Source: a virus. Taken from it: a DNA stretch of 64,000 nt. The DNA is taken from positions 2,502-66,501 of the IMG/VR virus record IMGVR_UViG_3300044712_002465. One strand, 5' to 3'. The notes beneath the pieces are model-generated. The model searched no databases, had not been told where the DNA came from, and saw only the letters and a program-made list of their open reading frames with translations. A program made the position numbers and the translations under genes. Every line of letters begins with the position of its first letter. Within the stretch, counting starts at the first letter, position 1. Shown here one piece after another: positions 5,107 through 64,000 of the stretch.

Positions 5107-6866
5107 CACGCGCCTCCCGTGAAGAACTCGGCGCTTGCCCGCAGCTCGCCGCGCCCCTCCACCAGCTCGAGCGCGCGGAGCCGGCCGAGGTACGTCGAGA
5201 ACGTGCCGGAGACGTGGCTGATCTGGGCGGCCTGGCCGAGCTGCTCGTTCGTGAGGGCGTTCGGGTAGGCCTCGACGAGGGTCCGCAGCATGCGCGCGGC
5301 GCCGCCGCCGAGCTCGTGGATCCAGTACTCGGCGAGCGCCATGCCCTCGGGCAGGGGGTCGTACGCCCCGAGGGCCGCCAGGCCGGCGTCGGTGATCTTC
5401 AGGTGGCCGCGGCCGTCGACCCAGCCCTGCGACCGGGCGCGGCCGAGGTAGGTGGAGAACGTCCCGGAGCGGGAGGAGACGCCAGCGCGGACCCCGAGCT
5501 GCGCGTTCGTGAGGCCCTGGGGGCGCTGGGCGAGGGCGATGAGCATGCGGCGCAGGCCGGAGTTGCCCACCGCGGCGTCGCCGGCGCCCTCGGCCAGCCG
5601 CTCGGGGGCGGCGCGGGCGGGGATCGGCGCCGGGATCGGGCGGCGCGTCGGCGGGGCCACCGCCGCGGCCGAGCGCGGGAAGGGGACGAACGGCGCCGCC
5701 GGGCGCGGCGCGGGGGGCGGCTCGCCGGGGCGGGCGGCGCGCTCGATCTCGTGCCGGAGCTCCGCCGCGCTCATGGTCAGCCGGGAGGCGATGCCCTCGG
5801 CGCGCTCGACCAGCTTCACGAGGCGGTCGACCTGCGCGTCCTTCAGGACCGGGACCTCGACCCGCTTCTCCTTCGCCGGCGCCGGAGCGGCGGCCGCCGG
5901 CTTCTTGGCGAGCTCGCGCTCCAGCTCGACGATGCGCCTCCGGAGCGCCTTCGGGTCGTCCTTCTCGGCCGAGGCGACGACCTCGGCCAGGTCGCTGCGC
6001 AGCGCGGCGACGTCCATCGGGGTGAGCTTCCCGGCCGCGGCCGCCGCCCGCCCGACCTGGGGGGTCGCCGAGGCGTCGAACGTGGTCTTCCGGCCGAGGT
6101 GGATCCGGCTGAACGTCCGGAGCCAGGACGGGCTCCACAGGTACGCCTCGCCCACCGCCAGCCCGGGCAGCTCGCCGACCAGCTTCCGGTCCGCGTTCGC
6201 CTCCTTCACCCACCCCTCGAGCGCCTTCCGCTCGTGCTCCCCGTTCACCTGGAGGACGACGAGGCACTCGGTCTGGGAGAGGACCTCCTTGTTCACGGAC
6301 TGCGGGCGCTGCGTGATCATCGTGCAGCCGATCCCGTAGTTCCGGCCCAGGCGGACGATGTCCTCGAACGCGCCGAGCATCTGGCGCTCGTCAGCCTCCG
6401 GAACCTGCGGGACGAGCTTCTGCGCCTCCTCGAGGAAGAGGTGCATCGGCGAGCGCTGAGCCTTCTTGCGGTGGAAGAGCTCCTCGGCGAAGGCCGCGGC
6501 GAACCGCTTCCGCTCGCCCTTCCGGAAGCCCGAGACGTCGAGGACGACGGAGGCCCGCTTCTCGACGACGAGCTGGGCGATCCGCGGCCCGGCCTCCGGC
6601 GTGAGCGGCAGGTCGCCATGCTCCCCGCCGAAGACGTAGATGTCCTTCCCGCCGGCGGGGCGGCCGTCAGCACCGAGGCGGAGCGAGAACCAGTTCCCGA
6701 CGGGGTCGATGGCGACGACCTGGGCGCCGGCGTCGAGCATCTGCTCGGCGAGGAGCTGGGCGCCGTAGGTCTTCCCGCCGCCCTTGCGCGCGATGAACGC
6801 CAGGGTCTGGGTGACCGCGTCGAGCGGCAGGGCGAGGTCCTTGGCGATGCGGAGCTGCTTCGGCAC
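5106..6866 (-). CDS. HerA/FtsK-like (DUF87) ATPase with tandem C-terminal winged-HTH domains
   Basis: Walker A ARKGGGKT, AIDPVG, Walker B LFLEEAQ, RLGRNYG, ITQRPQ; GAGGAGG RBS before GTG 6866. Confidence 0.85.
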   Translation of the reverse strand: MPKQLRIAKDLALPLDAVTQTLAFIARKGGGKTYGAQLLAEQMLDAGAQVVAIDPVGNWFSLRLGADGRPAGGKDIYVFGGEHGDLPLTPEAGPRIAQLVVEKRASVVLDVSGFRKGERKRFAAAFAEELFHRKKAQRSPMHLFLEEAQKLVPQVPEADERQMLGAFEDIVRLGRNYGIGCTMITQRPQSVNKEVLSQTECLVVLQVNGEHERKALEGWVKEANADRKLVGELPGLAVGEAYLWSPSWLRTFSRIHLGRKTTFDASATPQVGRAAAAAGKLTPMDVAALRSDLAEVVASAEKDDPKALRRRIVELERELAKKPAAAAPAPAKEKRVEVPVLKDAQVDRLVKLVERAEGIASRLTMSAAELRHEIERAARPGEPPPAPRPAAPFVPFPRSAAAVAPPTRRPIPAPIPARAAPERLAEGAGDAAVGNSGLRRMLIALAQRPQGLTNAQLGVRAGVSSRSGTFSTYLGRARSQGWVDGRGHLKITDAGLAALGAYDPLPEGMALAEYWIHELGGGAARMLRTLVEAYPNALTNEQLGQAAQISHVSGTFSTYLGRLRALELVEGRGELRASAEFFTGGA

Positions 6867-6897
6867 GTTCACCTCCTCGAGGTGGATGACGGCGGCT

Positions 6898-7164
6898 TCA
6901 GGGGGCACGGGGCGGCTCCTCGCGGACGACGATGAGGACCGGGACGCCGGGGTTGCTGCGGCAGGCCTTGCACTGGGAGATCGAGCGGAGCTTCCGGCCG
7001 ACCCGCCGGAGCCCGAAGGCCTTCAGCGGCTTCGTGAGGCCGCACTTCGTGCAGATCTGGGTGATGAAGACCTCCTCGCCGTCCTCCGTGAAGAGGCGGC
7101 AGGGGATCGGCTGCGCGGCGGCGCGCCGGGGCGCGGTCGTGCTGGACGCGGCGAGCTGCGTCAT
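6898..7164 (-). CDS. Small zinc-finger protein
   Basis: CTKCGLTKPLKAF...SQCKAC. Confidence 0.6.
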   Translation of the reverse strand: MTQLAASSTTAPRRAAAQPIPCRLFTEDGEEVFITQICTKCGLTKPLKAFGLRRVGRKLRSISQCKACRSNPGVPVLIVVREEPPRAP

Positions 7165-8039
7165 GGCGCGCGCCTCCCGGGCCCGGCTCTCCGGAGGTCC
7201 GCCTCCGCTGCCTTCCTCGCTGCCCGCTCGTCCTCGAGCACACGGACGACGCCGCACACGCGCGCCTCGGAGGAGGCGAGCTTTGCGCGGAGGGCCCCGA
7301 CCTCGGCGTCGACGCGGCTCAGCTCCGCCTCGTTGGCGAGCCTGCACTCTCGTTCGGTCCGGACCTGGGCCTCGGCGGTGGCGAGCGCACCGCGGGCCTC
7401 CTCCAGCATCCGCTCCAGGGAACGAACGAGGGCGACGGTGCGCGCACCTTCGACGCGCGCGTCGTTCGCCTCGTCGCGCGCGCGGCGGCGGCCCTGGCTC
7501 GCGTCCTCGAAGGCCCTCGCCATCGTCTCCTCGCGGGTGATCGCCGCCTGCGCCTCATTCCGAGCGGCGGCGAGGGCGGCGAAGACGAGCCGCGTCGCCC
7601 ACGCAGGCGGGCGGATCCCCTCGTTGGCGAGCGCCTCCCAGTGCGCGAGCTGCTCGGGCGTGGGCGACGCGCCCGGGGCCCCGACCGTGTCCTTCTCGAC
7701 GGCCCCCCTCGCAGCCTCTCGGGCGTTCTCGACGATCCGCCCGATCTCCTCCAGTGGCCTCCGGTGAGGAGGCACCAGAGGCACGGTCCCGACGTCGGTG
7801 GGCATCGGGCCGGTCATCAGCGCGACGGCGACCGGGGCCAGCCGCGCGTCCTCGCGCGCCGGGTCCTGGGCCAGCGGCGCGACGTCCGGATGGGAGGCGA
7901 CCAGGTCGACGAGCGCGGGCACGGCGTCGAGCAGCCGGCGCACGTCGCGCCCGGGCAGCCCGCCCTGCTCCAGCCACGCGAGGCCGAGCCGCTTCAGATC
8001 GGCGAGTTCTCCGGGCTTCGTGGGGTCGAGCGTCGCCAT
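7161..8039 (-). CDS. Coiled-coil hypothetical protein
   Basis: ATG 8039 with GGAGG RBS; Ala/Glu/Arg-rich C-terminus. Confidence 0.55.
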   Translation of the reverse strand: MATLDPTKPGELADLKRLGLAWLEQGGLPGRDVRRLLDAVPALVDLVASHPDVAPLAQDPAREDARLAPVAVALMTGPMPTDVGTVPLVPPHRRPLEEIGRIVENAREAARGAVEKDTVGAPGASPTPEQLAHWEALANEGIRPPAWATRLVFAALAAARNEAQAAITREETMARAFEDASQGRRRARDEANDARVEGARTVALVRSLERMLEEARGALATAEAQVRTERECRLANEAELSRVDAEVGALRAKLASSEARVCGVVRVLEDERAARKAAEADLRRAGPGRRAP

Positions 8040-30133: not shown

Positions 30134-30508
30134 ATGGCCGCCGAGGGCACGCCGATCGCCCCGAAGACCATCGCCATCTGGAAGGCGATGGTGGACCAGG
30201 TCGTGCAGCTCGGTGACCTGGCGGATCGGGCGGCCGACGTCCTGCCGCCTGACGAGGCTCAGCGGACGCGCGAGCTTCTCTCCGACGTGCTCGTGACCCT
30301 CGCCACGCAGGCGGTGCCCCAGCTCCTCGCCGAGCGGGAGGAAATGCTCGAGATGCTGCGGGAGGTCGAGTGGAGTAAGCCGGTCGGGGTCGACGGATGC
30401 ATCGACGCATGCCCGGCATGCCTGGGCCAGAAGCCGTGGCGCAACGAGCGCGGCGACACCGGCGGAGGCCACGCCCCCGACTGCCGCCTCGCCGCGTTCC
30501 TCCGGTGA
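30134..30508 (+). CDS. Hypothetical protein with CPxC...GHxxDC zinc motif
   Basis: MLREVEW...CPAC...GHAPDCRLAAFL. Confidence 0.6.
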   Translation: MAAEGTPIAPKTIAIWKAMVDQVVQLGDLADRAADVLPPDEAQRTRELLSDVLVTLATQAVPQLLAEREEMLEMLREVEWSKPVGVDGCIDACPACLGQKPWRNERGDTGGGHAPDCRLAAFLR

Positions 30509-52339: not shown

Positions 52340-53155
52340 ATGGGCACCCCGTACACCGGCAACGACGCGACGATCACGGCGCACTCGGCCGCCACGGCGA
52401 CGCTCCCCGACGACACCGACCTGATCCAGTCGGAGACGTTCAAGATCGCGTACCGGAAGCTCCTCGACTACCTCGACTTCCTCCAGGCGCACGCCGCGCT
52501 CCTGAACGAGCTCGCCGTGTTCACGGCCGGGATGCAGATCAGCGCGGGCGACCTCGAGCTGACGCATGCCGCGATCCAGGCGATCCTCAAGGCCGGTGGT
52601 GGAGCGCTGCAGATCGGTACGAAGGCCGGGAACGCCTCCGACGTCGAGGTGGTCGTCAACGGCGTGGTGCGCCTCGCTGCGCTCGCCGCCGGAAACCTGG
52701 ACGCGAAGAGCCAGCGCATCATCAACGTGACCGACCCGACGGGCTCGCAGGACGCGGTCACGAAGACGTACGTGGACTCTCGGGCGGTGACGTCGATCGG
52801 GGGGGCGATCTCGTTCGGAACGGGCTGGAGCGACTCCACCCCAACGCCCTCGACGCTCGTTCGCGTGGGCAAGCTCGTGATGCTCGCCATGCCTGGCGTC
52901 GCGGCGGGTGGCGGATCGGTGTGGTCGTCCATCGCGACGCTCGCCGCGGGGTTCCGGCCCTACGCCCAAATCCAGGCCGCGTGCCAGATCCGAGACGTGA
53001 GCGCCTTCGCGGTCTACGAGGGCAACGCCACCATCGCTGTGGACGGTACCGTGTTGGTCCAGAACTACGTCAGCGGGAGTGGCGCGATCCAGGTCCCGTT
53101 CGCGATCGGAAACGGAGACATGGCCTGGATCTACGCGACGTTCCTCGCGGCCTAG
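52340..53155 (+). CDS. Short tail fibre protein
   Basis: RIINVTDPTGSQDAVTKTYVD fibre motif; C-terminal IATLAAGFRP receptor-binding-type domain. Confidence 0.75.
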   Translation: MGTPYTGNDATITAHSAATATLPDDTDLIQSETFKIAYRKLLDYLDFLQAHAALLNELAVFTAGMQISAGDLELTHAAIQAILKAGGGALQIGTKAGNASDVEVVVNGVVRLAALAAGNLDAKSQRIINVTDPTGSQDAVTKTYVDSRAVTSIGGAISFGTGWSDSTPTPSTLVRVGKLVMLAMPGVAAGGGSVWSSIATLAAGFRPYAQIQAACQIRDVSAFAVYEGNATIAVDGTVLVQNYVSGSGAIQVPFAIGNGDMAWIYATFLAA

Positions 53156-53448
53156 TAGCAGGTCGCGGACGACCGGTGGACCGCCGCGGTCCAGGCTCCG
53201 GACGCGTCCGGGCGCGCGAGCTGAACGATCGCCCAGCACGCCGGCGCGCCGTCGACGAGCACGCGCTCCCAGGAGCACCAGGCGTCCGTCGAGGACGCGC
53301 TGCCCTGGCCCGTCGGACTCCTGCACGTGTAGGTCGTACCGGCCACGGACCACAGGTCCTCGAGGCGAGGCCAGTCGGGCGCCGACTCCGAAGACCCGCC
53401 ACACGCCATCAGCGCCGCCGCCGCCATGCTCACGAGCACTCTCTTCAT
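53152..53448 (-). CDS. Lipoprotein moron (candidate superinfection exclusion)
   Basis: MKRVLVSMAAAALMA-C lipobox; opposite strand; upstream TTCACC-N17-TACCGT. Confidence 0.65.
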   Translation of the reverse strand: MKRVLVSMAAAALMACGGSSESAPDWPRLEDLWSVAGTTYTCRSPTGQGSASSTDAWCSWERVLVDGAPACWAIVQLARPDASGAWTAAVHRSSATCY

Positions 53449-53521
53449 GCCCTGGGACGGTAGCAGCACACGCGCGCGGGGTGAACCGTACGCACGGTCG
53501 CAACCCCGGGAGGCACCGGGC

Positions 53522-53812: not shown

Positions 53813-53847
53813 GGGGCGAACCCTACCACCGACGGGTGGTCGGCCGC

Positions 53848-53877
53848 TTGCCACGCTCGGGGATCCCGTGCCAACGG
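53848..53877 (+). promoter_or_regulatory. Putative late promoter 4 (lysis/exported-fibre operon)
   Basis: TTGCCA-N12-CCGTGCCAACGG, GTG at 53883. Confidence 0.75.
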
Positions 53878-53882
53878 TGGCC

Positions 53883-54488
53883 GTGAGCCCCTTCCCCTGG
53901 TTCCCGATCGAGACGAACCCAGCGAAGAGAGGGGACTTCGCCGCTGGTCGGCGCCTGACCGCGGTCGACACGATCGTCCTGCACACGACCGAGGGCGGGA
54001 CCATCGCGGGGGCCAAGGAGTGGTGGGACCGCGAGGACGTGGTCGCCTCCGCCCACTTCATCATCGACGGGAAGCGGATCGTCCAGTGCGTCGCCGAGGG
54101 CGACACGGCGTACCACTGCGGCAACGGCAAGATGCACCGCCGTTCCGTCGGCGTCGAGGTCGTGGGGCACTGCGCCAACCCCGCGATGTGGACGGACGCG
54201 GTGGTGAAGCAGCTCGTCGAGCTCTGCGCCTACCTGGTCCGGAACCACCAGATCCCGATCCTCCACCAGGCGGGCCCGGGGATCTGCGGCCACTGCGACG
54301 TGCCGGATCCCTACCGCCCGGGCCTGTACGGGGGAGCGAGCCACCACACGGATCCGGGGAAGCACTTCCCCTGGGACCGCTTCCTGCTCGAGCTGCGCGC
54401 CGCCGACGCGCGCCTCCGGGCGGCGGCCGCCCCGTCCCCGAAGCCCCCGCCCGCGGCCGGGACCCCGCCGCCGAAGGAGACCCCATGA
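53883..54488 (+). CDS. Endolysin, N-acetylmuramoyl-L-alanine amidase (Amidase_2)
   Basis: IVLHTT...SAHFII...AYHCG...SVGVE...GHCDV...HTDPG..FPW. Confidence 0.92.
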   Translation: MSPFPWFPIETNPAKRGDFAAGRRLTAVDTIVLHTTEGGTIAGAKEWWDREDVVASAHFIIDGKRIVQCVAEGDTAYHCGNGKMHRRSVGVEVVGHCANPAMWTDAVVKQLVELCAYLVRNHQIPILHQAGPGICGHCDVPDPYRPGLYGGASHHTDPGKHFPWDRFLLELRAADARLRAAAAPSPKPPPAAGTPPPKETP

Positions 54489-55495
54489 AGCGCTGGATCA
54501 TCACCGCGACCCTCGCGGTCGCCATCGCGATCCCGCTCCTCGCGTTCGCCCAGGACGTGACGGGCGATCCGATGCTCGACTCGCTGATGAAGTACGTCCC
54601 GGCGAAGGCGCTGCCCTACGTCGCCGGGCTCTGGATCGTCCTCTTCTACCTCGTCGCCCCCATCGTCAAGGCGAAGGTCGGCGGGTCGAGCCTCGTCGGC
54701 CGGCTGGCGGTGAAGGCGGCCGAGTGGATCACCCAGGACAGCCACCGGCCCCCGCCGCTCAAGGTGGTCAAGGGCGGCGCGGAGTCTCCGCCCAAGGGCG
54801 CGGTGAGCACCGCCGTCGCGATCCTCGTGGCCGTGACCTGCACCCTCGTCCTCGTGTTCGTGACCCTGCTCCCGTCGAGGGCGTTCGGGCAGGACCGCGC
54901 CGAGATGGAGGCGCTCGAGCGGCGCGTCCTCTCGCTCGAGTCCTGCTACCAGCAGCCGGACGCGGCCGCCGTCGCGCGCTGCTTCGACCGCGGCATCAAC
55001 GGGCGCATCCTCGTCGCCCAGGCCGACACGAGCGCCGCGGCGCCCGCGCCCGAGGTCGCCCCGGCCGCGGCCCCGGCGGAGAGCGCGCCCCCGCCGGCCG
55101 CGCCGCCCGCGGAGACCCCCGCGCCGGCAGCTCCGGCCCCGCGTCTCGAGGTGCGGGTGACCTCCGATCTCTCCCTGCACCCCAACGTCTCCATCGCGGC
55201 GTTCGGCTACGACATCACCCACCGGCAGTGGATCGGCGGCGTGCAGATCACCGGCCTCTACGTCCTGACCTCCAAGCGCCTCCTCGACGCCGGCATCGGG
55301 TTCGGCGGGTCGCTCAAGCTCGGTACCGGGGCGACGGGCACCGACACGGGCCTGTCCGGAACGCTCAACGGGACGATCGTGTCGCCGCGCCTCGCCGCGG
55401 GGGGCGTGAACCTCCACGCGGCCGTCATCGGGGGCCGGCAGTTCGGGCCCGTCGCCGCGTGGCTCGCCTACGTGGCTCCCACCGTGGAGTTCTAG
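54485..55495 (+). CDS. Membrane protein: holin-like N-terminus plus C-terminal beta-barrel-like domain
   Basis: Signal peptide AFA-Q, TM, second signal-like segment AFG-Q, Pro/Ala linker, amphipathic strands ending in Phe. Confidence 0.6.
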   Translation: MKRWIITATLAVAIAIPLLAFAQDVTGDPMLDSLMKYVPAKALPYVAGLWIVLFYLVAPIVKAKVGGSSLVGRLAVKAAEWITQDSHRPPPLKVVKGGAESPPKGAVSTAVAILVAVTCTLVLVFVTLLPSRAFGQDRAEMEALERRVLSLESCYQQPDAAAVARCFDRGINGRILVAQADTSAAAPAPEVAPAAAPAESAPPPAAPPAETPAPAAPAPRLEVRVTSDLSLHPNVSIAAFGYDITHRQWIGGVQITGLYVLTSKRLLDAGIGFGGSLKLGTGATGTDTGLSGTLNGTIVSPRLAAGGVNLHAAVIGGRQFGPVAAWLAYVAPTVEF

Positions 55496-55498
55496 ACG

Positions 55499-55834
55499 GT
55501 GGACGCCTCCACCCTCGCCACCGTCACCAGCGCGGCCCCTGACCCCGGGGCCGTCGTCGCCGTCGTTGGCGCCTTGCTGGTGGTCCTCGGAGGAGCCCTC
55601 GGGTTCCCGTGGTGGTGGAGGCCGGCGGTGCAGATCGCCGGGGCGGCTTGGCGGGGACGGCGCGCGCTCGCGCTGGTGAAGCCCGAGCCCGGCCCGGATC
55701 CGGTCTCCGACGGCGGCACCGCGGATGATCGCCTGATCCGTCCCTCCGCCGCTCCGGCGCCGCACTACGAGGTCACGGACCCGCTCCGGCCGATCGAGCC
55801 GGGCGGCGGGCCCACCGGAGGGATGGGCGGATGA
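55499..55834 (+). CDS. Single-TM membrane protein
   Basis: AVVAVVGALLVVLGGALGFPWWW. Confidence 0.55.
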   Translation: MDASTLATVTSAAPDPGAVVAVVGALLVVLGGALGFPWWWRPAVQIAGAAWRGRRALALVKPEPGPDPVSDGGTADDRLIRPSAAPAPHYEVTDPLRPIEPGGGPTGGMGG

Positions 55835-56241
55835 CGCGCCTCCTCGCGGCCGTCCTCCTCCTCGCCGGGTGCGCGCCGCGCGTCGCCACGCGCGCCGAGC
55901 TCGACCGCTCGCCGGTCGGGCAGTTCGGGATCGTGCGGCCGCCGCCCATCGGGTGCTCCGAGACGTCGGGCCCGCCGTGGAACGCCGCGCGCTGGGTCTC
56001 GATCTGGGACGGTGACGGCGGCTGGGGCTACTGCTCCGTCGACCTCGTCAGCCCGCACCGCGTCCGGTGCCTCTTCGACCACTGCGAGCGCCTCGAGTCG
56101 GGGGCGTGGCGGTGCGGCGCGCCGGAGCGCGCGTTCCATTCCTTCAACGGCTGGGCGGCGGCGGGCCTGGGGCTTCACCTCGGGGCCGGTGCGGCGGAAG
56201 GTCCGCCGCCGCCCTCTTCCTCCGCGACGAGGCGCCCATGA
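55831..56241 (+). CDS. Cys-rich lipoprotein
   Basis: MTRLLAAVLLLAG-C lipobox. Confidence 0.6.
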   Translation: MTRLLAAVLLLAGCAPRVATRAELDRSPVGQFGIVRPPPIGCSETSGPPWNAARWVSIWDGDGGWGYCSVDLVSPHRVRCLFDHCERLESGAWRCGAPERAFHSFNGWAAAGLGLHLGAGAAEGPPPPSSSATRRP

Positions 56242-56504
56242 AGTTCAACCCGCGCTCGTTCCTGGTCGGCGTTCTCGCCGCGATCATCCCCACGATCGGC
56301 GCGGCCTGGGCGTTCGCCACCCTCGCCGCCGACCACGTCCTCAAGCCCCACCTCGAGGGCGCGCGGGTGCGCATCGGCGTCATGTGCACGCTCGCCGACG
56401 TCCAGAACCGGAAGCTGAAGGCGATCTGCGAAAAGACCCAGGCCGCCTGCGACGCCTCGATGGACGAGGCGCTCGTGGCCGCGTGCCACGAGGCCACGAA
56501 GTAG
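56238..56504 (+). CDS. Small membrane protein (holin/spanin candidate)
   Basis: FLVGVLAAIIPTIGAAWAFA; four Cys in C-terminal part. Confidence 0.55.
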   Translation: MKFNPRSFLVGVLAAIIPTIGAAWAFATLAADHVLKPHLEGARVRIGVMCTLADVQNRKLKAICEKTQAACDASMDEALVAACHEATK

Positions 56505-56514
56505 GGAGGACGCG

Positions 56515-56811
56515 ATGGGCGCAGTCATCGAAGCGAGGCGACACCGGGCGATGGCGATGCGAACCGCCCTCGGTCTCGCCCTTCTCATCGCCGCGTGCGC
56601 CGCGCCACGCCCGGTCGCCCGCTCGACCAGGCCGCCGGAGTGGGAGCCCTGCGCCGCGCGGTGCCGCGTCATCTACGCCCAGGAGATGCCGGGAGCGCAC
56701 CTCAACGCCGCCGGGCAGTGCGTGTGCATGCCCGAGATCGTCCACCTCCGCGCGACGCTCCGCGCGGTCAGCACCGTCGCGACGCCTCCGGTCGCGACCC
56801 CCTCGAAGTGA
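56515..56811 (+). CDS. Small Cys-rich lipoprotein
   Basis: MRTALGLALLIAA-C lipobox; CAARC...CVC. Confidence 0.55.
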   Translation: MGAVIEARRHRAMAMRTALGLALLIAACAAPRPVARSTRPPEWEPCAARCRVIYAQEMPGAHLNAAGQCVCMPEIVHLRATLRAVSTVATPPVATPSK

Positions 56812-56825
56812 AGGAGCCACACGCC

Positions 56826-57500
56826 ATGATCAAGACGTTCCGCGCCATCGCCCTCGTCGCCGCCTTCCTCGTCGCCACGCCCGCGCTCGCCGCGTCGGGC
56901 AAGTCGCAGACGCTCCGCAACTCCATCCCGAACCAGATCTTCCGCTCCGTCGCGTGGACGCCCCCGGCCACGCTCGAGCTCCACCTCGAGTCGACGTGCT
57001 CGGACGGCGCGGGCGGGCTCGGCGTGGAGGTCGATCCGGCCTACGCCTACACCCACCAGGTGCTCAACCCGGGCGCGACGAACTGGGGCATCAACGGGAC
57101 CAACGGGAACGCCACCGCGGGCGCCCTGTCGAACATCACCGCGATCACGTTCCCGACCGTCACCGGGACGAACTGGACCGTCCGCTGCGTGTCCATCCGG
57201 ACCGGCACGACCCGCCACTACTGGGGCGACGTGAACGGCTCGCCGCAGACCGTGACCGTGGGCTCCACCGCCAGTTTCGCCACGAACGCGCTCACCATCA
57301 CCGAGGCCGCGGCGGGGATGCCGAGCTTCGACGAGATGCAGGCGGTGCTCGGGCGTCCGATCGAGACCCTCGCCGACCTCCTCGCCTTCTACGACGAGGC
57401 GGACAGGCTCGCCCGGCTCGAGGCCATGAGCGAGGACGAGGCGGTGTCCTCGGTGCTGGACCCGACCCCCGACGTCGACACCTGGTCCGCGCAGCAGTAG
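56826..57500 (+). CDS. Signal-peptide-bearing phage fibre-associated structural protein
   Basis: MIKTFRAIALVAAFLVATPALA-A; core AWTPPATL...VEV...Y...SNITAITFPT...W...TVTVG..ASF...ALTITE resembles a widespread small phage tail/fibre protein family. Confidence 0.7.
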   Translation: MIKTFRAIALVAAFLVATPALAASGKSQTLRNSIPNQIFRSVAWTPPATLELHLESTCSDGAGGLGVEVDPAYAYTHQVLNPGATNWGINGTNGNATAGALSNITAITFPTVTGTNWTVRCVSIRTGTTRHYWGDVNGSPQTVTVGSTASFATNALTITEAAAGMPSFDEMQAVLGRPIETLADLLAFYDEADRLARLEAMSEDEAVSSVLDPTPDVDTWSAQQ

Positions 57501-57512
57501 CCCGGAGCTCGC

Positions 57513-59795
57513 ATGCGCCGCCTCTTCCTCGTCGCCGCCCTGGCGATGGCCTGGGGCGGCGCTGCCTATGGGCAGTCCACGTATTTCGGGATGACCATCC
57601 CGACGACGCACCCGCGCCTTTGGTACAACGGCGCCTCCGACCCCCGGTACATCGAGGCGGCCGCGCGGGCGAGCAGCATCACGCTCAACGGCGACCCGTA
57701 CTACGCCGGCGAGTACCAGGACTACGCGCTCAAGGGGATGCTCCAGGGCAACGCCTCGTACTGCACCACCGCCGCGAACTGGGCGATGGCCGAAGCGCAG
57801 GCGCACGGACCCGGCGGCGGCGGCGCCGACATGGACTACGCCCGCTGGGACGGGCAGTTCGTGATCTTCATCTGGGACTGGTGCAACGGGCAGTTCACGG
57901 GCGCTGCGCGGACCACGTTCATCTCGAACATGAACTCGTGGTTGGACTTCCAGCAGACGAGCGGCTGCACACTCGACACGATGGTGCAGGGCAACTACTT
58001 CTGGGGTGCGCTCCGCAACCACCTGATGTGGGGCCTCGCAAGCTACGAGGAGAACACGACGAAGGCGCAGCAGTTCATCGCCGCGGCCATCACTCAGCGT
58101 TACCGCAACGACTTCCTCCCGTTCGACAAGAATCTGAACCAGGGCGGCCTCGCCATCGAGGGCTCGGAGTACGGGCCCTACCTCGCCGGCTACGCGACGC
58201 CCGCCTTCGACGCGGCGGCTGTCTTCGGGATCCCCGGGATCTGGGACGAGGCGAACTTCTGGAAGGAGCATGTGTACGGGACGATCTACATGACGCTCCC
58301 GACGACCTGGGCAAGCAACCCGGGCGGCTGGTACTTCTTCCCGCACTCCGACGTGGGCGGGGCCTTCGCCAACGGCTCGGGCATCAACCGGGACATGAGC
58401 GGGCCCATCGATCCGAACCGCGGCACGAACTACGGCATCTTCATGACGTACGCCGCGCGGCAGTGGAACGCGAGTCCGATCGGCCAGCACGCGGCGCAGT
58501 GGCTCAAGCAGACCGGCCAGCCACGCGAGGGGTGGATGTCGCTCTACGACCCCGGCACCCTCACCACGGCCTCGTTCTCGACGCTCCCGCTGGACTACTA
58601 CGCCGCTGGGCAGAAGTGGCTGTTCGCGAAGGACTCCTGGGCGTCCGGTGCGACGGCGGTGTTTCTCCAGGGCGGCGATCGGGCGATGCAGTTCTCCTGC
58701 GGCCACGGGCACGTCGATTGGGGCAACTGGCAGATGTGGCGGAACGGTCGGTGGCTCTCCCGCGAGACGACGGACTACAACGGATTCATCCCGTCGTTCG
58801 ATCCGCCGCTGGACGGCACCACCTTCGAGGACACGGAGCACTCCGTCGCGCACAACGTCCTCTGGGTCCAGGGGCAGGCCGAGCTATACGGCGGGTACGA
58901 CTACTTCGACCCGCGCGGCACGGCCACGACGACGCGCCTGGAGTCGAAGCCCGCGTACACGTTCCAGGCGACCGATTTCATCTCGCTCAAGACGCAGAAC
59001 AACGGGTGGAGCACGCCCAACGCACACATGACCGGCTGGGTGCGGGAGTTCGTCTTCTTCCGCGGCCTCGGGACCCTCGTGATCATGGACCGCATCCAGA
59101 GCGACCACACGACGGACCGAAAGTCGGTCGTCATCCACACGGAGGGAAACCCGACGGTGCTCTCCGCGCGCCCCGGCCTCACGTACACCACTGGTACCGA
59201 GGCGATGGACGCCTGGGTCTGGGCGGTGCCCTCCACGTCGGTAACGATGCGAAAGGTCTTCGAGAAGGAGGAGCGCGAGTTCTACCCAGGACCTCCGCCA
59301 CCGGGAGCGCCCACGGGGCGCGGGCACAACCCCGGCCACGGGCAGTACCGCGTCGAGATCGACACCACGCCCGGCGTGACGCAGAGCTACATCGTGCAGG
59401 TCATCCAGGGGCGCGCCGCCGCCGGCTCCGCGCTCAGCCCGACCATCGTGGACAACGGCGCGAGCTTCACAGTCACCTTGGACGGGAGCAACGCCGTGAC
59501 GTTCGTGAAGGGCGCGGCGTCGAGCGGCGGAACCATCACCGCGACCGGCACCTCGTCGTCGCTCACGTCCGCGCGTCAGGCGTTCTCGGTCACCGCCGCC
59601 GGCCCCTCGTGGGACGCGGAGGTGCCCGGCACCGTGGCGACCTCCGCCACCATCTCGGCCGCCGCGACCGTGACGGCCACCCTCGGAGCGCGGACTCCGC
59701 TCTCGGCGTCGCTCACCGCCTCGGCGTCGTTCGACCCCACGATGCTCGTCTCGACCCGCGCGACCGGCGCCTGCGGTGTCCCGCTGGGTCACTAG
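57513..59795 (+). CDS. Secreted heparinase II/III-like polysaccharide lyase with C-terminal stalk repeats
   Basis: Signal peptide AYG-Q; THPRLW, GGLAIEGSEYG, GHGHVDWGNW, HNVL, REFVF...LVIMDRI. Confidence 0.7.
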   Translation: MRRLFLVAALAMAWGGAAYGQSTYFGMTIPTTHPRLWYNGASDPRYIEAAARASSITLNGDPYYAGEYQDYALKGMLQGNASYCTTAANWAMAEAQAHGPGGGGADMDYARWDGQFVIFIWDWCNGQFTGAARTTFISNMNSWLDFQQTSGCTLDTMVQGNYFWGALRNHLMWGLASYEENTTKAQQFIAAAITQRYRNDFLPFDKNLNQGGLAIEGSEYGPYLAGYATPAFDAAAVFGIPGIWDEANFWKEHVYGTIYMTLPTTWASNPGGWYFFPHSDVGGAFANGSGINRDMSGPIDPNRGTNYGIFMTYAARQWNASPIGQHAAQWLKQTGQPREGWMSLYDPGTLTTASFSTLPLDYYAAGQKWLFAKDSWASGATAVFLQGGDRAMQFSCGHGHVDWGNWQMWRNGRWLSRETTDYNGFIPSFDPPLDGTTFEDTEHSVAHNVLWVQGQAELYGGYDYFDPRGTATTTRLESKPAYTFQATDFISLKTQNNGWSTPNAHMTGWVREFVFFRGLGTLVIMDRIQSDHTTDRKSVVIHTEGNPTVLSARPGLTYTTGTEAMDAWVWAVPSTSVTMRKVFEKEEREFYPGPPPPGAPTGRGHNPGHGQYRVEIDTTPGVTQSYIVQVIQGRAAAGSALSPTIVDNGASFTVTLDGSNAVTFVKGAASSGGTITATGTSSSLTSARQAFSVTAAGPSWDAEVPGTVATSATISAAATVTATLGARTPLSASLTASASFDPTMLVSTRATGACGVPLGH

Positions 59796-59801
59796 GTCCC
59801 C

Positions 59802-62800
59802 ATGCGCCGAGCCCTCCTCGCCACCGTGCTGCTCGCCGGGCCCCTCGCGGCGCTCGCCGACTCGACCGTCACGCTCGACACGACGGCGCACGGTGCGGGC
59901 GGGAACACCTGGATCCGGTCCACGGTCGATCTCGCTTCGTCGAACGGCGTGCTGACCTCGCCCGTGTTCTCCACTGGCGGCGGCCGCCGCATGATCGTGT
60001 TGGCCGTGATGCTCGACGACAACGCGAGCACGAATCCGTCGCTGGACGCGGTCGCCTGGACGACGACCACGCCACCTGGCGCGACGGCGTTCACGCGGCT
60101 GCACCTGTACACGCCGCAGTCGACCAACGCGATCGACTTCTGGGGCGCCTGGACGGCGGAGGCGGTGTCGAGCGTCTCCGTGACGTTCACTCCGGGCGGG
60201 ACCGTCACGGCGGCAGCGGAGCTGCTCGACGTCTACGCGCTCGTCGGCGCGAAGCACACGGCCACCATGAGCGACTCGGTGGGGGCGACGATGGGGGCGG
60301 TGGGGGCGCTCGCCACGAACATCACGCCGACCTCCGCCCAGTCCCTCATCCTCGGAGGGGTGCTCGAGCTCTACTCCGCAGTCGCGCTGACGGCGACGAG
60401 CGCGATCGGCACCTACGATGACACCTGGCCGTCCACGTACCATCGGTATGCCTACGGGCGAGTCACGACGCACGGGACGGGCGCCGTCTCCTTCGGGTCC
60501 ACGACCGGAACCGTCGCTCAGACCATGGAGGCGGCGATCGAGATCCTGCCGGAGATCGTCTCCACCCAGGTCGCGAGCATCACGGCTCCGGCGTCGGTGT
60601 CCGCGGCGCTGTCCGTGAGCGTGCCCCTCTCGGCGAGCATCACGGGCCAGGCGACGATGACTCCGGAGATGGCGATCTCCTCCTCGTCCGTGGCGCTGCA
60701 GGCGAACATCACGGCGCCGGCGTCGGTCTCCGCCACCCTCTCGGTGTCGCATCCGCTCTCGGCCTCCGTGGCCGCGTCCGCGACCGTCGCCGCCGGCCTG
60801 TCGAACCCGGCGACCCCGCCCACGATCCGCGCGGGGTTCCCGGTCATCGCCAACCACGCGACGGCCGCTGCGCCCTACACGATCACCACCGCGGCCTTCA
60901 GCGCGAACGCCGGGGACGTCCTCGTAGCGTTCGCGCAGGCGTACACGCTGCCGGTCCTGCAGGGGTCCTCGCTGCGCTGGCTTCCGCGCGTGACCACCCG
61001 GAACAACGACTACGCGGGCGGGGTCGGGCACCGCTACCAGCAGACGACCATGTGGACCGCCGTTGTGCCCCCGGGCGGCGTGACGGGCGAGACGGTGAGC
61101 TTCAACGTCCCGACGACGCAGGAGTGGGGCTACGCGGTTACGGACACGCCGGCGCAGATCCAGGTGTTCGCCTTCGACAACGCCGGCGGCGTCGGGTACG
61201 TGCGGTGGCGCGGCGCCGAGGGCAACCTCGGCGTCATCACCGCCGGGATGACGATGCGCGCGCGAGGGGGTGGGAGCCTCCTCCTCGCCGGCGGCTCGCT
61301 CTGGGGCGGCGCGTGGGGCGCGGGCGCCGGGTCCAGCCTCGCCGGCGCCGTCACCAACTCCATGGGCGTGCTCTCGCGCGTCTCGACCGGCGCCGGGACC
61401 TTCGAGCTCAACACCGACAGCACGGCGCAGTTCTTCTGCTTCGCCGGGATCGAGATCCTCCCCGCGGGCGCGACGCCCCCGACGAAGAGGCTCCTCGCGC
61501 TCGGCGACTCGGGCGTGGAGAGCAACGACTCCGAGAACCCGTGGGCGCCGCTGACCACCGAGGCGCTCGGGACCGAGTGGGAGCTGTACGGCGGCGGCGT
61601 CTGGTGGGCCTACTCGGAGCACGTCCGCGCGCGCTGGACGGACATGTGGTCGCACGCGCCGCCGTTCGACATGGTGGTCTACCGGGTCGGGTGGAACGAC
61701 ATCACCTACCACGGTGCCCTGAACCAGACCGACTGGCTCTCCACGCTCACCTCGATCTCGACGGCCTCCCCGACGGGCAACCGCGGTTACATCGCCATGA
61801 GCCTGAAGGCGGAGAGCTGGTACGGCTACAGCGCCGGCTCCGACGCCGCGGACGCCTGGATGCGCTCGAACGCGCCCGCCGGGACGCACTTCTACGCGTG
61901 GGACGCCGCCCTCGGCACCACGACCCAGGTGCAGGCGTGCCTCTCGCCCGACGCGACGCACTGGAGCGACGTGTGCAACACCCAGATCGCGAACGAGCTG
62001 GTCACCGAGATCACCTCGATCATGGCCTCTCCGGTGCTCGGCGCGTCGCTCTCGGGGACCGCCACCGTCGGCGCCACGCTCTCGATCTCGACCCCCTCCG
62101 TCGCGCTCTCGGCGAGCATCGACGGACAGGCGACCGTCGCGGGGCCGCTCTCCGCGGCCACCCCGCTCTCCGCGACCATCTCCGGGCAGGCCACGCTCGA
62201 CTGCGGCATGGGGGCGTGCTCGGGGATGGGGGCGACCGTCTCGGGCCAGAGCTCCATCACCGCGACGCTGTCGGTGTCGACTCCGTTGGGCGCGCAGCTC
62301 GCGGGGACGGCCGCCGTGGGGGCTGGGGCGTCCGTGGCGACGCCTCTCGCGGCGACGGTCGATGGGCGGGCCGCCGTCGACGCGTCGCTGACGGGAGGCT
62401 CCGTCACCGTCCTGGACGCGGCCGTGGCCGGCGCGGGCTCCGTGTCGGCGGACCTCTCGGTGACGACGCCCGCCGGCGCCGCCGTCGCCGGGACCTCGAG
62501 CGTGGCGGCGAACCTCGGGGTGACGACGCCGGCGGGGGCCGGGATCCAGGGGACCGCCAGCGTCGCCGCCGAGCTGACCATCACCGGGAACGTCGCCCTC
62601 GCGGCCGACATCCAGGGGCAGGCGACCGTCTCCGCCGCGGCGGAGACGCAGGGGAGCGGCCTCTCCGCCGCGATCGGCGGCACGAGCTCGGTCGCCGCGA
62701 CGCTGTCGGTGAGCGTCCCCCTCGGCGCCACGCTGCAGGGTACGTCCTCGGTCCAGGCGGCGCTTCCGCGGGACCTCGCCCACGCGCCGCGGATCAAGCT

Positions 62801-62840
62801 CTCGACGCCGCGCCCGGCCATCACGATCCAAGGGAGGTAG
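59802..62840 (+). CDS. Large secreted fibre-like protein with SGNH/GDSL-like domain and Ala/Ser/Thr repeats
   Basis: Signal peptide ALA-D; LLALGDS...GWND...PDATHW; ~19-22 aa repeats such as PLSASITGQATV. Confidence 0.75.
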   Translation: MRRALLATVLLAGPLAALADSTVTLDTTAHGAGGNTWIRSTVDLASSNGVLTSPVFSTGGGRRMIVLAVMLDDNASTNPSLDAVAWTTTTPPGATAFTRLHLYTPQSTNAIDFWGAWTAEAVSSVSVTFTPGGTVTAAAELLDVYALVGAKHTATMSDSVGATMGAVGALATNITPTSAQSLILGGVLELYSAVALTATSAIGTYDDTWPSTYHRYAYGRVTTHGTGAVSFGSTTGTVAQTMEAAIEILPEIVSTQVASITAPASVSAALSVSVPLSASITGQATMTPEMAISSSSVALQANITAPASVSATLSVSHPLSASVAASATVAAGLSNPATPPTIRAGFPVIANHATAAAPYTITTAAFSANAGDVLVAFAQAYTLPVLQGSSLRWLPRVTTRNNDYAGGVGHRYQQTTMWTAVVPPGGVTGETVSFNVPTTQEWGYAVTDTPAQIQVFAFDNAGGVGYVRWRGAEGNLGVITAGMTMRARGGGSLLLAGGSLWGGAWGAGAGSSLAGAVTNSMGVLSRVSTGAGTFELNTDSTAQFFCFAGIEILPAGATPPTKRLLALGDSGVESNDSENPWAPLTTEALGTEWELYGGGVWWAYSEHVRARWTDMWSHAPPFDMVVYRVGWNDITYHGALNQTDWLSTLTSISTASPTGNRGYIAMSLKAESWYGYSAGSDAADAWMRSNAPAGTHFYAWDAALGTTTQVQACLSPDATHWSDVCNTQIANELVTEITSIMASPVLGASLSGTATVGATLSISTPSVALSASIDGQATVAGPLSAATPLSATISGQATLDCGMGACSGMGATVSGQSSITATLSVSTPLGAQLAGTAAVGAGASVATPLAATVDGRAAVDASLTGGSVTVLDAAVAGAGSVSADLSVTTPAGAAVAGTSSVAANLGVTTPAGAGIQGTASVAAELTITGNVALAADIQGQATVSAAAETQGSGLSAAIGGTSSVAATLSVSVPLGATLQGTSSVQAALPRDLAHAPRIKLSTPRPAITIQGR
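62030..62770 (+). repeat. Tandem ~19-22 codon stalk repeats (also 60570-60800 and 59630-59740)
   Basis: (P/A)L(S/G/A)A(S/T)(I/V/L)xG(Q/T)(A/S)(T/S)VxAxLSVxT repeated about a dozen times. Confidence 0.8.
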
Positions 62841-62844
62841 CCGC

Positions 62845-63369
62845 ATGCGCCGCTTCGCCCTCGCCGTGGTCCTCGCCCTCTCCGCCGGCTCGGCGCGCGC
62901 CGCCGACACGTACGTGTTCCCCACGCTCCGGGTGGCGCGCGGCTACCAGGGCCCGATCGTCGTGGACGTGACGTGGTCGGACGGCACCCCGCGCCCGGTC
63001 GCGCCGATCGTGGGAGTGCTGACGGTCTATCGCTCGAGCTCGACGCCCGGGAGCACCGGAGCCGTCCTGCTCCAGAAGGCGATCGACCCGGCGGGCGGGA
63101 CGGAGCCGGCGAACCGGATGGTGATCAACGTCTCATCCGCGGACCTCTCGGCCCCCGGGACCTACTACGCCGAGATCCAGCTCGTCGAGGCCCTCGCCAC
63201 CGACATGCTGCACGGCCTGGTGACCATCGAGGGCCAGAGGGTCCCGGGCGGCATCGGCCTGCTCGAGGAGGCGCCGGAGGGCGAGGTCGGCGGCGCGGTG
63301 GCGTTCGCGACGCCTCCCGAGGCGGCTCGGCGCTGGGCCGGCGGCGGGCCCACGGGTGGCATGGGGTAG
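62845..63369 (+). CDS. Signal-peptide-bearing BppU-N-like adaptor protein
   Basis: MRRFALAVVLALSAGSARA-A; VINVSSADLSAPGTYYAEIQL...HGLVTI. Confidence 0.6.
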   Translation: MRRFALAVVLALSAGSARAADTYVFPTLRVARGYQGPIVVDVTWSDGTPRPVAPIVGVLTVYRSSSTPGSTGAVLLQKAIDPAGGTEPANRMVINVSSADLSAPGTYYAEIQLVEALATDMLHGLVTIEGQRVPGGIGLLEEAPEGEVGGAVAFATPPEAARRWAGGGPTGGMG

Positions 63370-63458: not shown

Positions 63459-63659
63459 ATGAACGACGAGGCGGTGACGCTCATGCGAGAGATCGAGTGG
63501 GCGGGGAGCGCGTGGGCGCCGATGTGTCCGAAGTGCCGGCGGCTCCGGGGCGAGGGCCACGCCCGCGACTGCACGCTCGCCGCGTTCATCAAGGTGTCGG
63601 GAACCGAGCCCCTCCAGGTCGTCATGGACGACCTCGGCTGCCCCGTGGTCCACGACTGA
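63459..63659 (+). CDS. Small zinc-binding protein, paralog of 30134-30508 C-terminus
   Basis: GGGGAG RBS; LMREIEW...CPKC...GHARDCTLAAF. Confidence 0.55.
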   Translation: MNDEAVTLMREIEWAGSAWAPMCPKCRRLRGEGHARDCTLAAFIKVSGTEPLQVVMDDLGCPVVHD

Positions 63660-63956
63660 CGTCCCGGGGCCCGGAGCCGACCGGCCGCGCCAGCGCCCGC
63701 AGGAGCCGCGCGGCGTCGCCCGGGCGAGCGCTGGGGTGGGGGAGCGCCGGAAAACGCACGGCGCGGGCAGGGAGGGCCGCTCCTGACGATCCTGGCGAGG
63801 TGGCTCGGTCGCGTCGTGCCTGCCCGTCGGTTGCCCGAAGATCCCTGGCGAGCGGTGCGATCCGTGGAAGGCGTGGACGGGGCGCGCGGAGTCGAACACC
63901 AATCTCTACGCACCCTTGGCGATCCTAAGCGACCGGCGCGAACCGCCCCCTCCGTT

Positions 63957-63998
63957 TTCACACGGCTGGGGTCGCAGGTTCGAAACCTGCAGCGCCCA
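63957..63998 (+). other. 3' half of tRNA-Val(CAC): probable attR core
   Basis: TTCACAC loop, GGCTG, GGGTC, T-arm GCAGG-TTCGAAA-CCTGC, acceptor AGCGCCC-A; the expected 5' stem CAGCC and D-arm are absent. Confidence 0.85.
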
Positions 63999-64000
63999 CT

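Follow-up and report, generated by a model that had tools for sequence, protein, structure and literature searches.

Behind the lysis genes of a temperate soil phage (IMG/VR record IMGVR_UViG_3300044712_002465) lies a module of four genes, here called P1 to P4, which we read with moderate confidence as a chain-like-fibre cassette of the GP4/Bcep22 type, redirected to the cell envelope, exported and armed with enzymes. The reading draws on family and fold assignments, on a sequence repeat, on the co-occurrence of Gp80 proteins with periodic proteins, on a predicted docking and on recurrent signal peptides. The window, i.e. the whole stretch of DNA that was analysed, comprises 64,000 nucleotides (nt) and corresponds to bases 2502-66501 of the 66,501-base virus record. 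In tailed phages, folding and assembly of the structural proteins are generally placed in the cytoplasm. Why, then, would every component of a fibre carry an export signal? The parts of the module are as follows.

56826-57500, + strand: P1, putatively exported Gp80-type fibre monomer of 224 amino acids (aa), PF23140
56826-56891, + strand: P1 signal peptide, aa 1-22, by N-terminal analysis
56901-57302, + strand: P1 Gp80 domain, aa 26-159, PF23140
57303-57497, + strand: P1 acidic C-terminal extension, aa 160-224
57513-59795, + strand: P2, putatively exported polysaccharide lyase with a short rope tail, 760 aa
57513-57572, + strand: P2 signal peptide, aa 1-20, by N-terminal analysis
57573-59624, + strand: P2 (alpha/alpha)-toroid plus beta-sandwich lyase, aa ~21-704, from an AlphaFold2 (AF2) model and Foldseek
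59625-59792, + strand: P2 repeat tail, aa 705-760, by alignment to the P3 repeats
59802-62840, + strand: P3, putatively exported rope carrier with an SGNH-like esterase, 1012 aa
59802-59858, + strand: P3 signal peptide, aa 1-19, by N-terminal analysis
59859-60551, + strand: P3 N-domain, aa 20-250, by alignment to the extra domain of the Gp80 fusion protein P0048
60567-60806, + strand: P3 rope 1, aa 256-335, 20-residue period, 4 units
60825-61466, + strand: P3 middle domain, aa 342-555
61479-62024, + strand: P3 SGNH-like domain, aa 560-741, with GDS, GxND and DxxH blocks
62034-62771, + strand: P3 rope 2, aa 745-990, 20-residue period, about 12 units
62772-62837, + strand: P3 Arg/Pro-rich tail, aa 991-1012 (...PRDLAHAPRIKLSTPRPAITIQGR)
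62845-63369, + strand: P4, putatively exported small beta-sandwich protein in adaptor position, 174 aa
62845-62901, + strand: P4 signal peptide, aa 1-19, by N-terminal analysis
62902-63366, + strand: P4 mature part, with C-terminal GGGPTGGMG

The four open reading frames (ORFs) of the module (56826-63369) are separated by gaps of 12, 6 and 4 nt and have the coordinates and strand given in a first-pass annotation of this DNA, which had described them as phage-fibre components with polysaccharide-degrading heads in which every part bears an export signal. That description agrees with the PF23140 match of P1, the fold of P2, the SGNH blocks of P3 and all four N-termini. The signal peptides it listed were recovered by our own heuristic, which looks for n, h and c regions and small residues at positions -3 and -1: the N-termini are tripartite, with sites ALA|A (P1), AYG|Q (P2), ALA|D (P3) and ARA|A (P4), n-regions of +2 without an acidic residue and uncharged h-regions of 14-19 residues. 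This is the layout of Sec type-I signal peptides, and homologue alignments back the boundary in P1 and P4. A sister phage (L001) retains the signal peptides of P3 and P4. With every candidate start tried, the heuristic flags 4 of the 54 ORFs of the window supported by G+C content at third codon positions, all 4 within 56238-62840, and 0 of 46 ORFs upstream of 54489; the clustering is thus far beyond chance. P4 and four small ORFs failed the GC filter of this 54-ORF scan and were scored separately. From the endolysin to position 63369, nine consecutive ORFs each start with a signal peptide, a lipobox or a membrane segment, and the module runs on after the lysis genes as previously stated, on the same strand as the endolysin and with small gaps. 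We consider it likely, from these N-termini, that export of P1-P4 is real.

To which families do the exported proteins belong? Searches of the PDB with the P1-P4 sequences returned nothing significant. Residues 26-159 of P1 match positions 2-128 of the 128 in PF23140 ('podophage GP4 fiber I protein gp80'; E 5.6e-14, 53 bits, cut-off 27), which bears out its earlier description as a fibre-like protein, and no close relative of P1 was found in cultured phages or IMG/VR. A full HMMER search yielded 70 Gp80 representatives, query included. Signal peptides or lipoboxes are present in 22 of these 70, again with the query, in a classification made by hand that counts P0109, whose hydrophobic segment lies ~75 residues in. 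The predicted cleavage sites of the P1 family align with Met1 of the ~135-aa signal-less forms. On a Gp80 tree of 69 rows, from which the 975-aa outlier P0060 was dropped, the signal-peptide trait requires no fewer than 8 changes, of which well-supported branches force 5, against a shuffled mean of 18.6, with 0 of 500 shuffles as low; the trait is therefore clustered, yet it was gained or lost several times. P1 itself falls into a well-supported clade of 6 signal-peptide rows and 1 without. A cysteine pair (C58/C121 in P1) occurs in 13 of the 69 rows, 12 of the 13 being signal-peptide forms (Fisher p 1.9e-5, a value that ignores relatedness and uses a looser automatic call flagging 27 rows), and as judged from sequence fits an oxidising compartment. 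The signal peptide of P1 would argue against cytoplasmic assembly of this Gp80.

Two members of the family are fusions, P0048 in the order signal peptide, Gp80, domain, and P0044 in the order signal peptide, domain, Gp80; the extra domain of P0048 aligns to residues 21-218 of P3, its N-domain (E 3e-6). Short Cys-rich loops also recur in exported members, CGMGACSGMG in P3 (aa 800-810, 62199-62231) and CGGGSCSGLG in P0048, and another Cys-rich motif, CCTG(S/T)GTGNC, is found in P0064 and in a 215-aa exported protein of the sister phage (L001 9146-9793). Such loops may be disulfide-bonded knots.

The link between P1 and the larger proteins of the module would be the repeat. P3 has a 20-residue period (excess 0.38 at lag 20) and is the sole strongly periodic ORF in this genome. 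Residues 698-760 of P2 can be aligned with two stretches of P3, 249-294 (E 3e-6) and 766-806 (E 6e-6), so that the ~20-aa Ala/Ser/Thr repeat reported earlier is indeed common to both proteins. Since P3 is the only strongly periodic ORF and the P2 tail is homologous to it, docking sites for P1 would exist on signal-peptide-bearing proteins only. In a complex prediction with two copies of P1 (23-165) and P3 (256-335), the interface score ipSAE was 0.76, 0.77 and 0.76, and the best of three controls reached 0.01; of 80 solved complexes, 58 attain the mark used for this score, as do 2 of 110 mismatched pairs, a calibration that holds only roughly because our own alignment was used. Contacts agreed to at least 92% between runs, with a partner predicted local distance difference test (pLDDT) of 50-52. 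In the predicted complex both P1 copies contact a 25-residue stretch of P3, 294-318, through P1 residues 119-164, the C-terminal strands. The prediction points to likeness to a known architecture, not to binding as such.

That known architecture is the chain-like fibre of the podophages GP4 (Ralstonia), VP1 (Vibrio) and A1002 (Pseudomonas), in which Gp80-like dimers are strung on a rope-like polypeptide according to a 2026 cryo-electron microscopy (cryo-EM) study (PMC13730344). In these fibres each Gp80-like dimer forms an augmented beta-sheet with the rope, and the GP4 rope is a separate protein. The repeats, which the first-pass annotation had taken for a stalk, are better read as the docking rope of such a fibre, since Gp80 genes regularly have periodic neighbours, P1 is predicted to dock on P3 and fusions of Gp80 exist. 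We regard it as likely that they form a docking rope for P1 dimers.

Is a periodic protein a regular companion of Gp80? A same-strand ORF with a lag of 19-22 or 38-42 is present at 57 of 87 non-redundant Gp80 loci, a set still partly redundant in that 29 share one 305-aa rope class, the rope ORFs falling into more than 10 length classes from ~200 to 1137 aa. Where at least 4 kb are available downstream, a periodic ORF is found at 38 of 41 loci. Strong periodicity was seen in 98 of 2151 scored ORFs, and 74 of the 98 have lags of 19-22 or 38-42; control proteins peak at other lags. The periodic partners include gp61 of Bcep22, next to gp60, gp15 of Itty13, next to gp16, and, in three loci from metagenome-assembled genomes (MAGs; L007-L009), proteins with lengths of 559, 567 and 1136 aa, whose neighbours resemble structural genes of phages. 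When ropes were compared by the phase of their hydrophobic and Gly/Pro positions, the profiles were too noisy. In 400 genomes of one class, Gp80 was present in 3.

P2 and P3 would provide the enzymes. P2 has 35 homologues, query included, 8 of which carry PF07940 in the precomputed annotation; P2 itself scores below the cut-off of that family (E 0.12, 12 bits, cut-off 24). The AF2 model built with the homologue alignment (pLDDT 79, predicted template-modelling score 0.83) returns heparinase II, 3e7j, as the top Foldseek match (E 5.9e-23, TM 0.57), followed by the PL15 alginate lyase Atu3025 and PL17 lyases, and the earlier assignment to heparinase II/III-like lyases is thereby confirmed at the level of the fold. 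The final 56 residues are disordered in the monomer model, with a tail pLDDT of ~27. In the alignment, H398, Y220, Y227 and R168 are invariant across the family. Most of the P2 relatives inspected start with a signal peptide or lipobox, the shorter ones stop where the repeat tail of P2 begins, and chromosomal secreted lyases, e.g. of Arenimonas and Dokdonella, are among them. Viral models with a heparinase II-type fold are rare: BFVD holds 10 matches at E <= 0.001, five of which are named ODV-E66 or occlusion-derived-virus envelope proteins and come from insect or crustacean viruses.

P3 has a single homologue in 5.8 billion proteins searched, P0037 of the sister phage. The two have a common core of 400 residues in which GDSG, GWND/GSND and DxxHW blocks are conserved. 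P0037 covers the whole Lipase_GDSL_2 profile (PF13472) at E 1.8e-5 and 25.7 bits, below the cut-off of 32.9; P3 itself has no Pfam match. An Atlas feature score of 0.91 points to SGNH/GDSL in P3, and 16 of 30 matches share that family set. The SGNH-like esterase proposed before thus has moderate support, from the conserved blocks, the sub-threshold match of P0037 and the Atlas, set against the missing Pfam match of P3. The AF2 model of P3 (pLDDT 28.7) is unusable.

P4 likewise has one homologue among the 5.8 billion proteins, 76% identical and encoded by the sister phage. In the Atlas its neighbours are small beta-sandwich proteins of viruses, whose alignment to P4 starts at residue ~19 and so leaves out the signal peptide. 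The first-pass annotation had identified P4 as a BppU-N adaptor. We do not follow this: P4 has no Pfam match up to E 5, BppU_N (PF10651) included, and one Atlas cluster at 0.85, with BppU_N in 18% of its members, is at most a weak lead. An adaptor role for P4 is suggested by its gene position, the order of monomer, rope or enzyme, and small protein being common to GP4-type cassettes and the module. Cassettes elsewhere are closed by Gp77 (PF23148, 'GP4 fiber-tail adaptor gp77'), as in Bcep22 gp63 (E 3e-25), Itty13 gp14 (E 1e-22) and L007 (E 6.4e-10). Basic tails like the Arg/Pro-rich tail of P3 also close the ropes of L001, Bcep22 and Itty13.

Two further loci show exported sets. At the same place as the module, the sister phage encodes an exported protein of 215 aa, a lipoprotein, the homologue of P3, two exported proteins of ~490 and ~1500 aa and the homologue of P4, which is followed by an integrase gene as read by eye. 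The ~1500-aa protein combines a lyase and a beta-helix with 22-residue repeats and a C-terminal tail like that of P3. On the IMG/VR viral contig L023 (1238-6718), a signal-peptide Gp80 (E 1e-9 to P1) is surrounded by an exported Fn3 protein, an apiosidase-like glycosidase (PF13204, E 4.6e-66) bearing a twin-arginine-type signal, RRRDFIK, two more exported proteins and a 20/40-periodic protein. A 275-aa protein of this contig does not match the N-domain of P3 (E 1.6). Because the periodic ORF and the end of the gene before it overlap in different frames, a frameshifted fusion is possible; on the opposite strand, amidase-like and lipoprotein genes run alongside the module by sequence reading. 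Elsewhere the association is looser. In a Methylobacter MAG (L007, 10001-13495), a signal-peptide Gp80, a rope without signal peptide and Gp77 lie within an ordinary structural block, the rope consisting of a lectin-like N-terminal half and 20-residue repeats. In L007 the bead thus seems to be exported and the string not; a signal-peptide Gp80 also stands among structural genes read as signal-less in L017, L018 and L019.

How does the module compare with known systems? With the fibres of GP4, VP1, A1002, Bcep22 and Itty13 it shares the PF23140 monomer, a nearby partner with ~20-residue repeats, the predicted dimer docking and a small closing protein, and the Bcep22 cassette likewise has an enzyme gene inside (gp62, annotated pectin lyase-like). 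Unlike these cassettes, every component here has a signal peptide. In 202 cultured-phage records, matches to a signal-peptide-bearing Gp80 query start at residue 33 or later, which weakly suggests that the cultured forms lack the signal peptide. The ropes here are joined to a lyase and an esterase, where the known fibres have a separate rope or one that belongs to the nozzle. No Gp77 adaptor is found here, the podovirus nozzle of GP4-type phages is replaced by a Mu-type head, a tape measure, a gpI-like protein and a Baseplate_J baseplate, and the module lies behind the lysis genes, whereas GP4-type cassettes lie in the structural block.

Virion-borne depolymerases, i.e. tailspikes and fibres, are cytoplasmic and usually trimeric. 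They resemble the module in having lyase and SGNH-type esterase heads on a fibre-like carrier, and differ in that signal peptides and a bead-on-rope carrier are found here. The cellular heparinase II/III-type lyases (PL21 heparinase II, PL15 Atu3025, PL17 Alg17c) share the fold and the invariant residues with P2 aa 21-704 and have exported relatives; the P2 homologues inspected end in '...GP(V/A/S)W(Q/G/E)' or enter unrelated domains, fibre-type repeats being present only in P2 and the lyase of L001. A late tailed-phage protein sent through Sec before lysis has precedents in Sec-exported and signal-arrest-release (SAR) endolysins, e.g. Lys44 of Oenococcus phage fOg44 (PMC6116005). Those are lysis enzymes, in contrast to the fibre parts and exopolysaccharide-degrading enzymes that would be exported here, next to an endolysin of the phage's own without signal peptide. 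Full-text literature searches gave no relevant title on an exported tail fibre or depolymerase. Judged mainly by titles, neither an all-exported, enzyme-fused chain-like fibre behind the lysis genes of a baseplate phage nor the signal peptides in about one third of Gp80 representatives were found in print. The first-pass annotation had proposed an undescribed system; the exported version was indeed not found in print in these searches, but its architecture looks like that of the chain-like fibre of GP4, VP1 and A1002 (PMC13730344). Of the earlier interpretation as a whole, the fibre parts, the export signals, the enzyme heads and the position behind the lysis genes stand; a self-standing stalk most likely does not, the BppU-N adaptor is at most a weak lead, and the system is not wholly undescribed.

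Several observations weigh against a re-addressed chain-like-fibre cassette. The whole record has no Gp77 match at E <= 1, and P4 was rejected as a Gp77 candidate, the alignment of its family with Gp77 reaching a probability of 0.1%. The complex score may come from likeness to the solved GP4, VP1 and A1002 fibres, and the partner fold is uncertain (pLDDT ~50). The rope of Bcep22, gp61, has no detectable homology to P3 (BLASTP E 0.79), so that the link between the ropes rests on period and context. The sister phage keeps P4, the P3 core and a lyase, yet its repeat period is 22, not 20, and its 215-aa exported protein did not qualify as a Gp80 in profile comparison (hhalign probability 7%; only CCTG(S/T)GTGNC is common with P0064, E 3e-7 over 23 residues). 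Signal-peptide Gp80 proteins occur among signal-less structural genes, as read by eye, in L007, L017, L018 and L019, and the signal-less rope beside a signal-peptide Gp80 in L007 implies that bead and string need not be exported together. Finally, the cassette lies beside the presumed attP, a classic place for cargo genes.

For the export, cleavage, timing, substrate and destination of P1-P4 we infer the following course. The cassette would be transcribed late with the lysis genes, as strand and spacing suggest, and P1-P4 would be exported by Sec and their signal peptides cleaved. P1 would be the bead: by prediction and context, P1 dimers would be strung on the ropes of P3 and P2 by beta-strand augmentation, with roughly 4 + 12 docking sites on P3 and about 2 on P2. 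The fibres would assemble in the periplasm and be freed once the envelope is breached at lysis. Lyase and esterase could then strip an acetylated acidic exopolysaccharide, a substrate suggested by the folds, and the fibre would act free or mount on released virions through the Arg/Pro tail of P3 and P4.

Could such extracytoplasmic arming be a widespread, overlooked route, in which a receptor-degrading fibre is exported, assembled in the periplasm and meets the virion at envelope breach, or is secreted as a free 'fibre-zyme'? We offer this only tentatively; an assembly route of wide distribution is suggested because signal-peptide Gp80 proteins make up about one third of the representatives and arose several times. 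By the module and this third of the family, at least one type of fibre component would pass through Sec as a rule. On that premise, post-lysis or periplasmic assembly of host-recognition gear becomes possible, the recruitment of secreted, disulfide-bearing cellular enzymes as fibre heads is explained, and the bead-on-rope scaffold would serve as a modular device for enzyme display. For chain-like fibres in general, so far represented by only three cryo-EM structures, the pairing of a Gp80 gene with a nearby 20-residue-periodic protein would provide a genomic rule.

The best-surviving alternative, which we still judge unlikely, is that P1-P4 are lysogenic-conversion cargo (morons): secreted or surface polysaccharide-degrading enzymes expressed from the prophage, with Gp80 and rope as a borrowed scaffold that plays no part in the virion. 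The lysogen could use them to remodel exopolysaccharide, for nutrition or predation, or to mask receptors. The cassette comes as the final block ahead of the presumed attP and the integrase, its content varies between the two sister phages while the flanks are kept, the relatives of P2 include the chromosomal lyases of Arenimonas and Dokdonella, and P0055, a signal-peptide Gp80, stands alone without fibre genes in an integrase-bearing element (L005, by eye). All this would suit cargo. The module nevertheless shares the strand of the lysis genes, with gaps of 4-14 nt, and a scan for sigma-70 consensus sites, weak for a 72% GC genome, found no separate promoter or terminator. A nearby opposite-strand gene, 53152-53469, looks more moron-like, and the bead-and-rope architecture is otherwise known from virions (PMC13730344).

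It is less probable still, and indeed improbable, that P1-P4 are ordinary virion fibres made in the cytoplasm, with hydrophobic N-termini that act as transient membrane tethers or as pro-peptides removed by another protease during assembly. The signal-peptide-like Gp80 proteins inside the signal-less structural clusters of L007, L017, L018 and L019 would be understandable in this way, and the virion-bound Gp80-like gp41 of A1002 lacks its first ~30 residues in the map, for which the authors suggest proteolysis (PMC13730344). The N-termini here, in contrast, have canonical n/h/c regions with AXA-type sites, cleavage is predicted just where the signal-less forms have Met1, the Cys pair is nearly confined to signal-peptide forms, the cellular relatives of P2 are exported, and the adjoining genes encode lipoproteins and membrane proteins. 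Alternating hydrophobic residues with a Pro or Gly turn, as seen in the 20-residue units, are also typical of beta-spiral shafts, but that the repeats form a self-standing trimeric shaft, as implied before, with P1 an unrelated accessory protein, is the least probable explanation of all: periodic proteins accompany Gp80, the docking predicted for the P1 dimer covers a single stretch the size of one repeat, where controls score near zero, and modelling P2 as a monomer leaves its tail disordered, as a trimer-only shaft might be too.

The re-addressed fibre cassette, as we continue to read the module, forms the last block of the late region, since the lysis genes precede it and the presumed attP and the integrase follow. 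The neighbouring features are these.

53868-54488, + strand: endolysin (N-acetylmuramoyl-L-alanine amidase), Pfam Amidase_2 E 2.7e-22, 20 PHROG families mostly annotated endolysin/amidase
54485-55495, + strand: envelope ORF with signal peptide and two further transmembrane segments, C-terminus ...VEF, by N-terminal analysis
55499-55834, + strand: envelope ORF with one transmembrane segment, by N-terminal analysis
55831-56241, + strand: lipoprotein ORF, lipobox LAGC, by N-terminal analysis
56238-56504, + strand: ORF with signal peptide or anchor, by N-terminal analysis
56551-56811, + strand: lipoprotein ORF, lipobox IAAC, by N-terminal analysis
63874-64000, no strand: contig-end repeat of 127 nt, identical to the contig start; presumed attP, from the terminal repeat and a tRNA-3'-end-like stretch
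contig 279-821, - strand: tyrosine integrase, PF00589, on the far side of the contig junction that follows the window

The record begins and ends with the same 127 bases, and the collection lists it with direct terminal repeats and as 100% complete; from the repeat and this rating, the record is a complete, circularly assembled phage genome of ~66.4 kb. Its G+C content is 70-76%, and family searches identify the portal and the major head protein as Mu-type and also find a tape measure, Baseplate_J and a gpI-like protein. The closest cultured TerL, of Myxococcus phage Mx4, is 43% identical, and hints, only as a lead, at a myxobacterial or other high-GC Gram-negative host. The final ~50 bases of the window resemble the 3' end of a tRNA, although neither ARAGORN nor Rfam called an RNA gene in the contig-end repeat, which we presume to be attP. 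At the contig start, a hairpin is followed by a T-run and then by the integrase gene.

The endolysin opens the + strand gene run that ends with the module, and its N-terminus has neither a hydrophobic stretch nor a signal peptide by N-terminal analysis. The five ORFs that follow (54485-56811) match no Pfam family at E < 0.3 and may have holin or spanin roles. The first of them, with 336 aa, also holds a coiled-coil-like stretch, a long Pro/Ala linker and a beta-rich C-terminal part of ~130 residues, and its copy in the sister phage (L001, within 6424-7737) terminates in ...TLEF. Outer-membrane beta-barrels come to mind, as they too end in an aromatic residue; the ORF could represent two genes or else a lysis protein that spans the envelope in an unusual way. 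P4 and the membrane protein at 55499-55834 share the C-terminal motif GGGPTGGMG(G) (55808-55834, 63340-63366), both copies of which are kept in the sister phage as GGGSTGGMS and GGGPTGGMG, and which may be a shared recognition tag. PADLOC families gave no match save a chance-level DrmB on the small ORF at 56238 (E 0.0054).

Between the tail-fibre gene and the endolysin, the - strand gene 53152-53469 encodes a lipoprotein (lipobox LMAC) without a Pfam family, in a moron-like layout; its counterpart in the sister phage is also on the - strand (L001 4861-5196), and it may act in superinfection exclusion. The promoter previously placed at 53848 is neither supported nor rejected by the consensus scan. 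A perfect palindrome, ACCACCGACGGGTGGT, lies at 53825-53840, 28 nt upstream of the endolysin start, and has no second exact copy within the window. On the 3' side of P4, at about 63459-63659, a small Cys-rich ORF (...CPKCRRLRGEGHARDCTLAAF...) is found; 63549-63590 and 30461-30502 form a 42-nt stretch of 83% identity, and the phage may thus contain two paralogous small zinc-ribbon-like genes.

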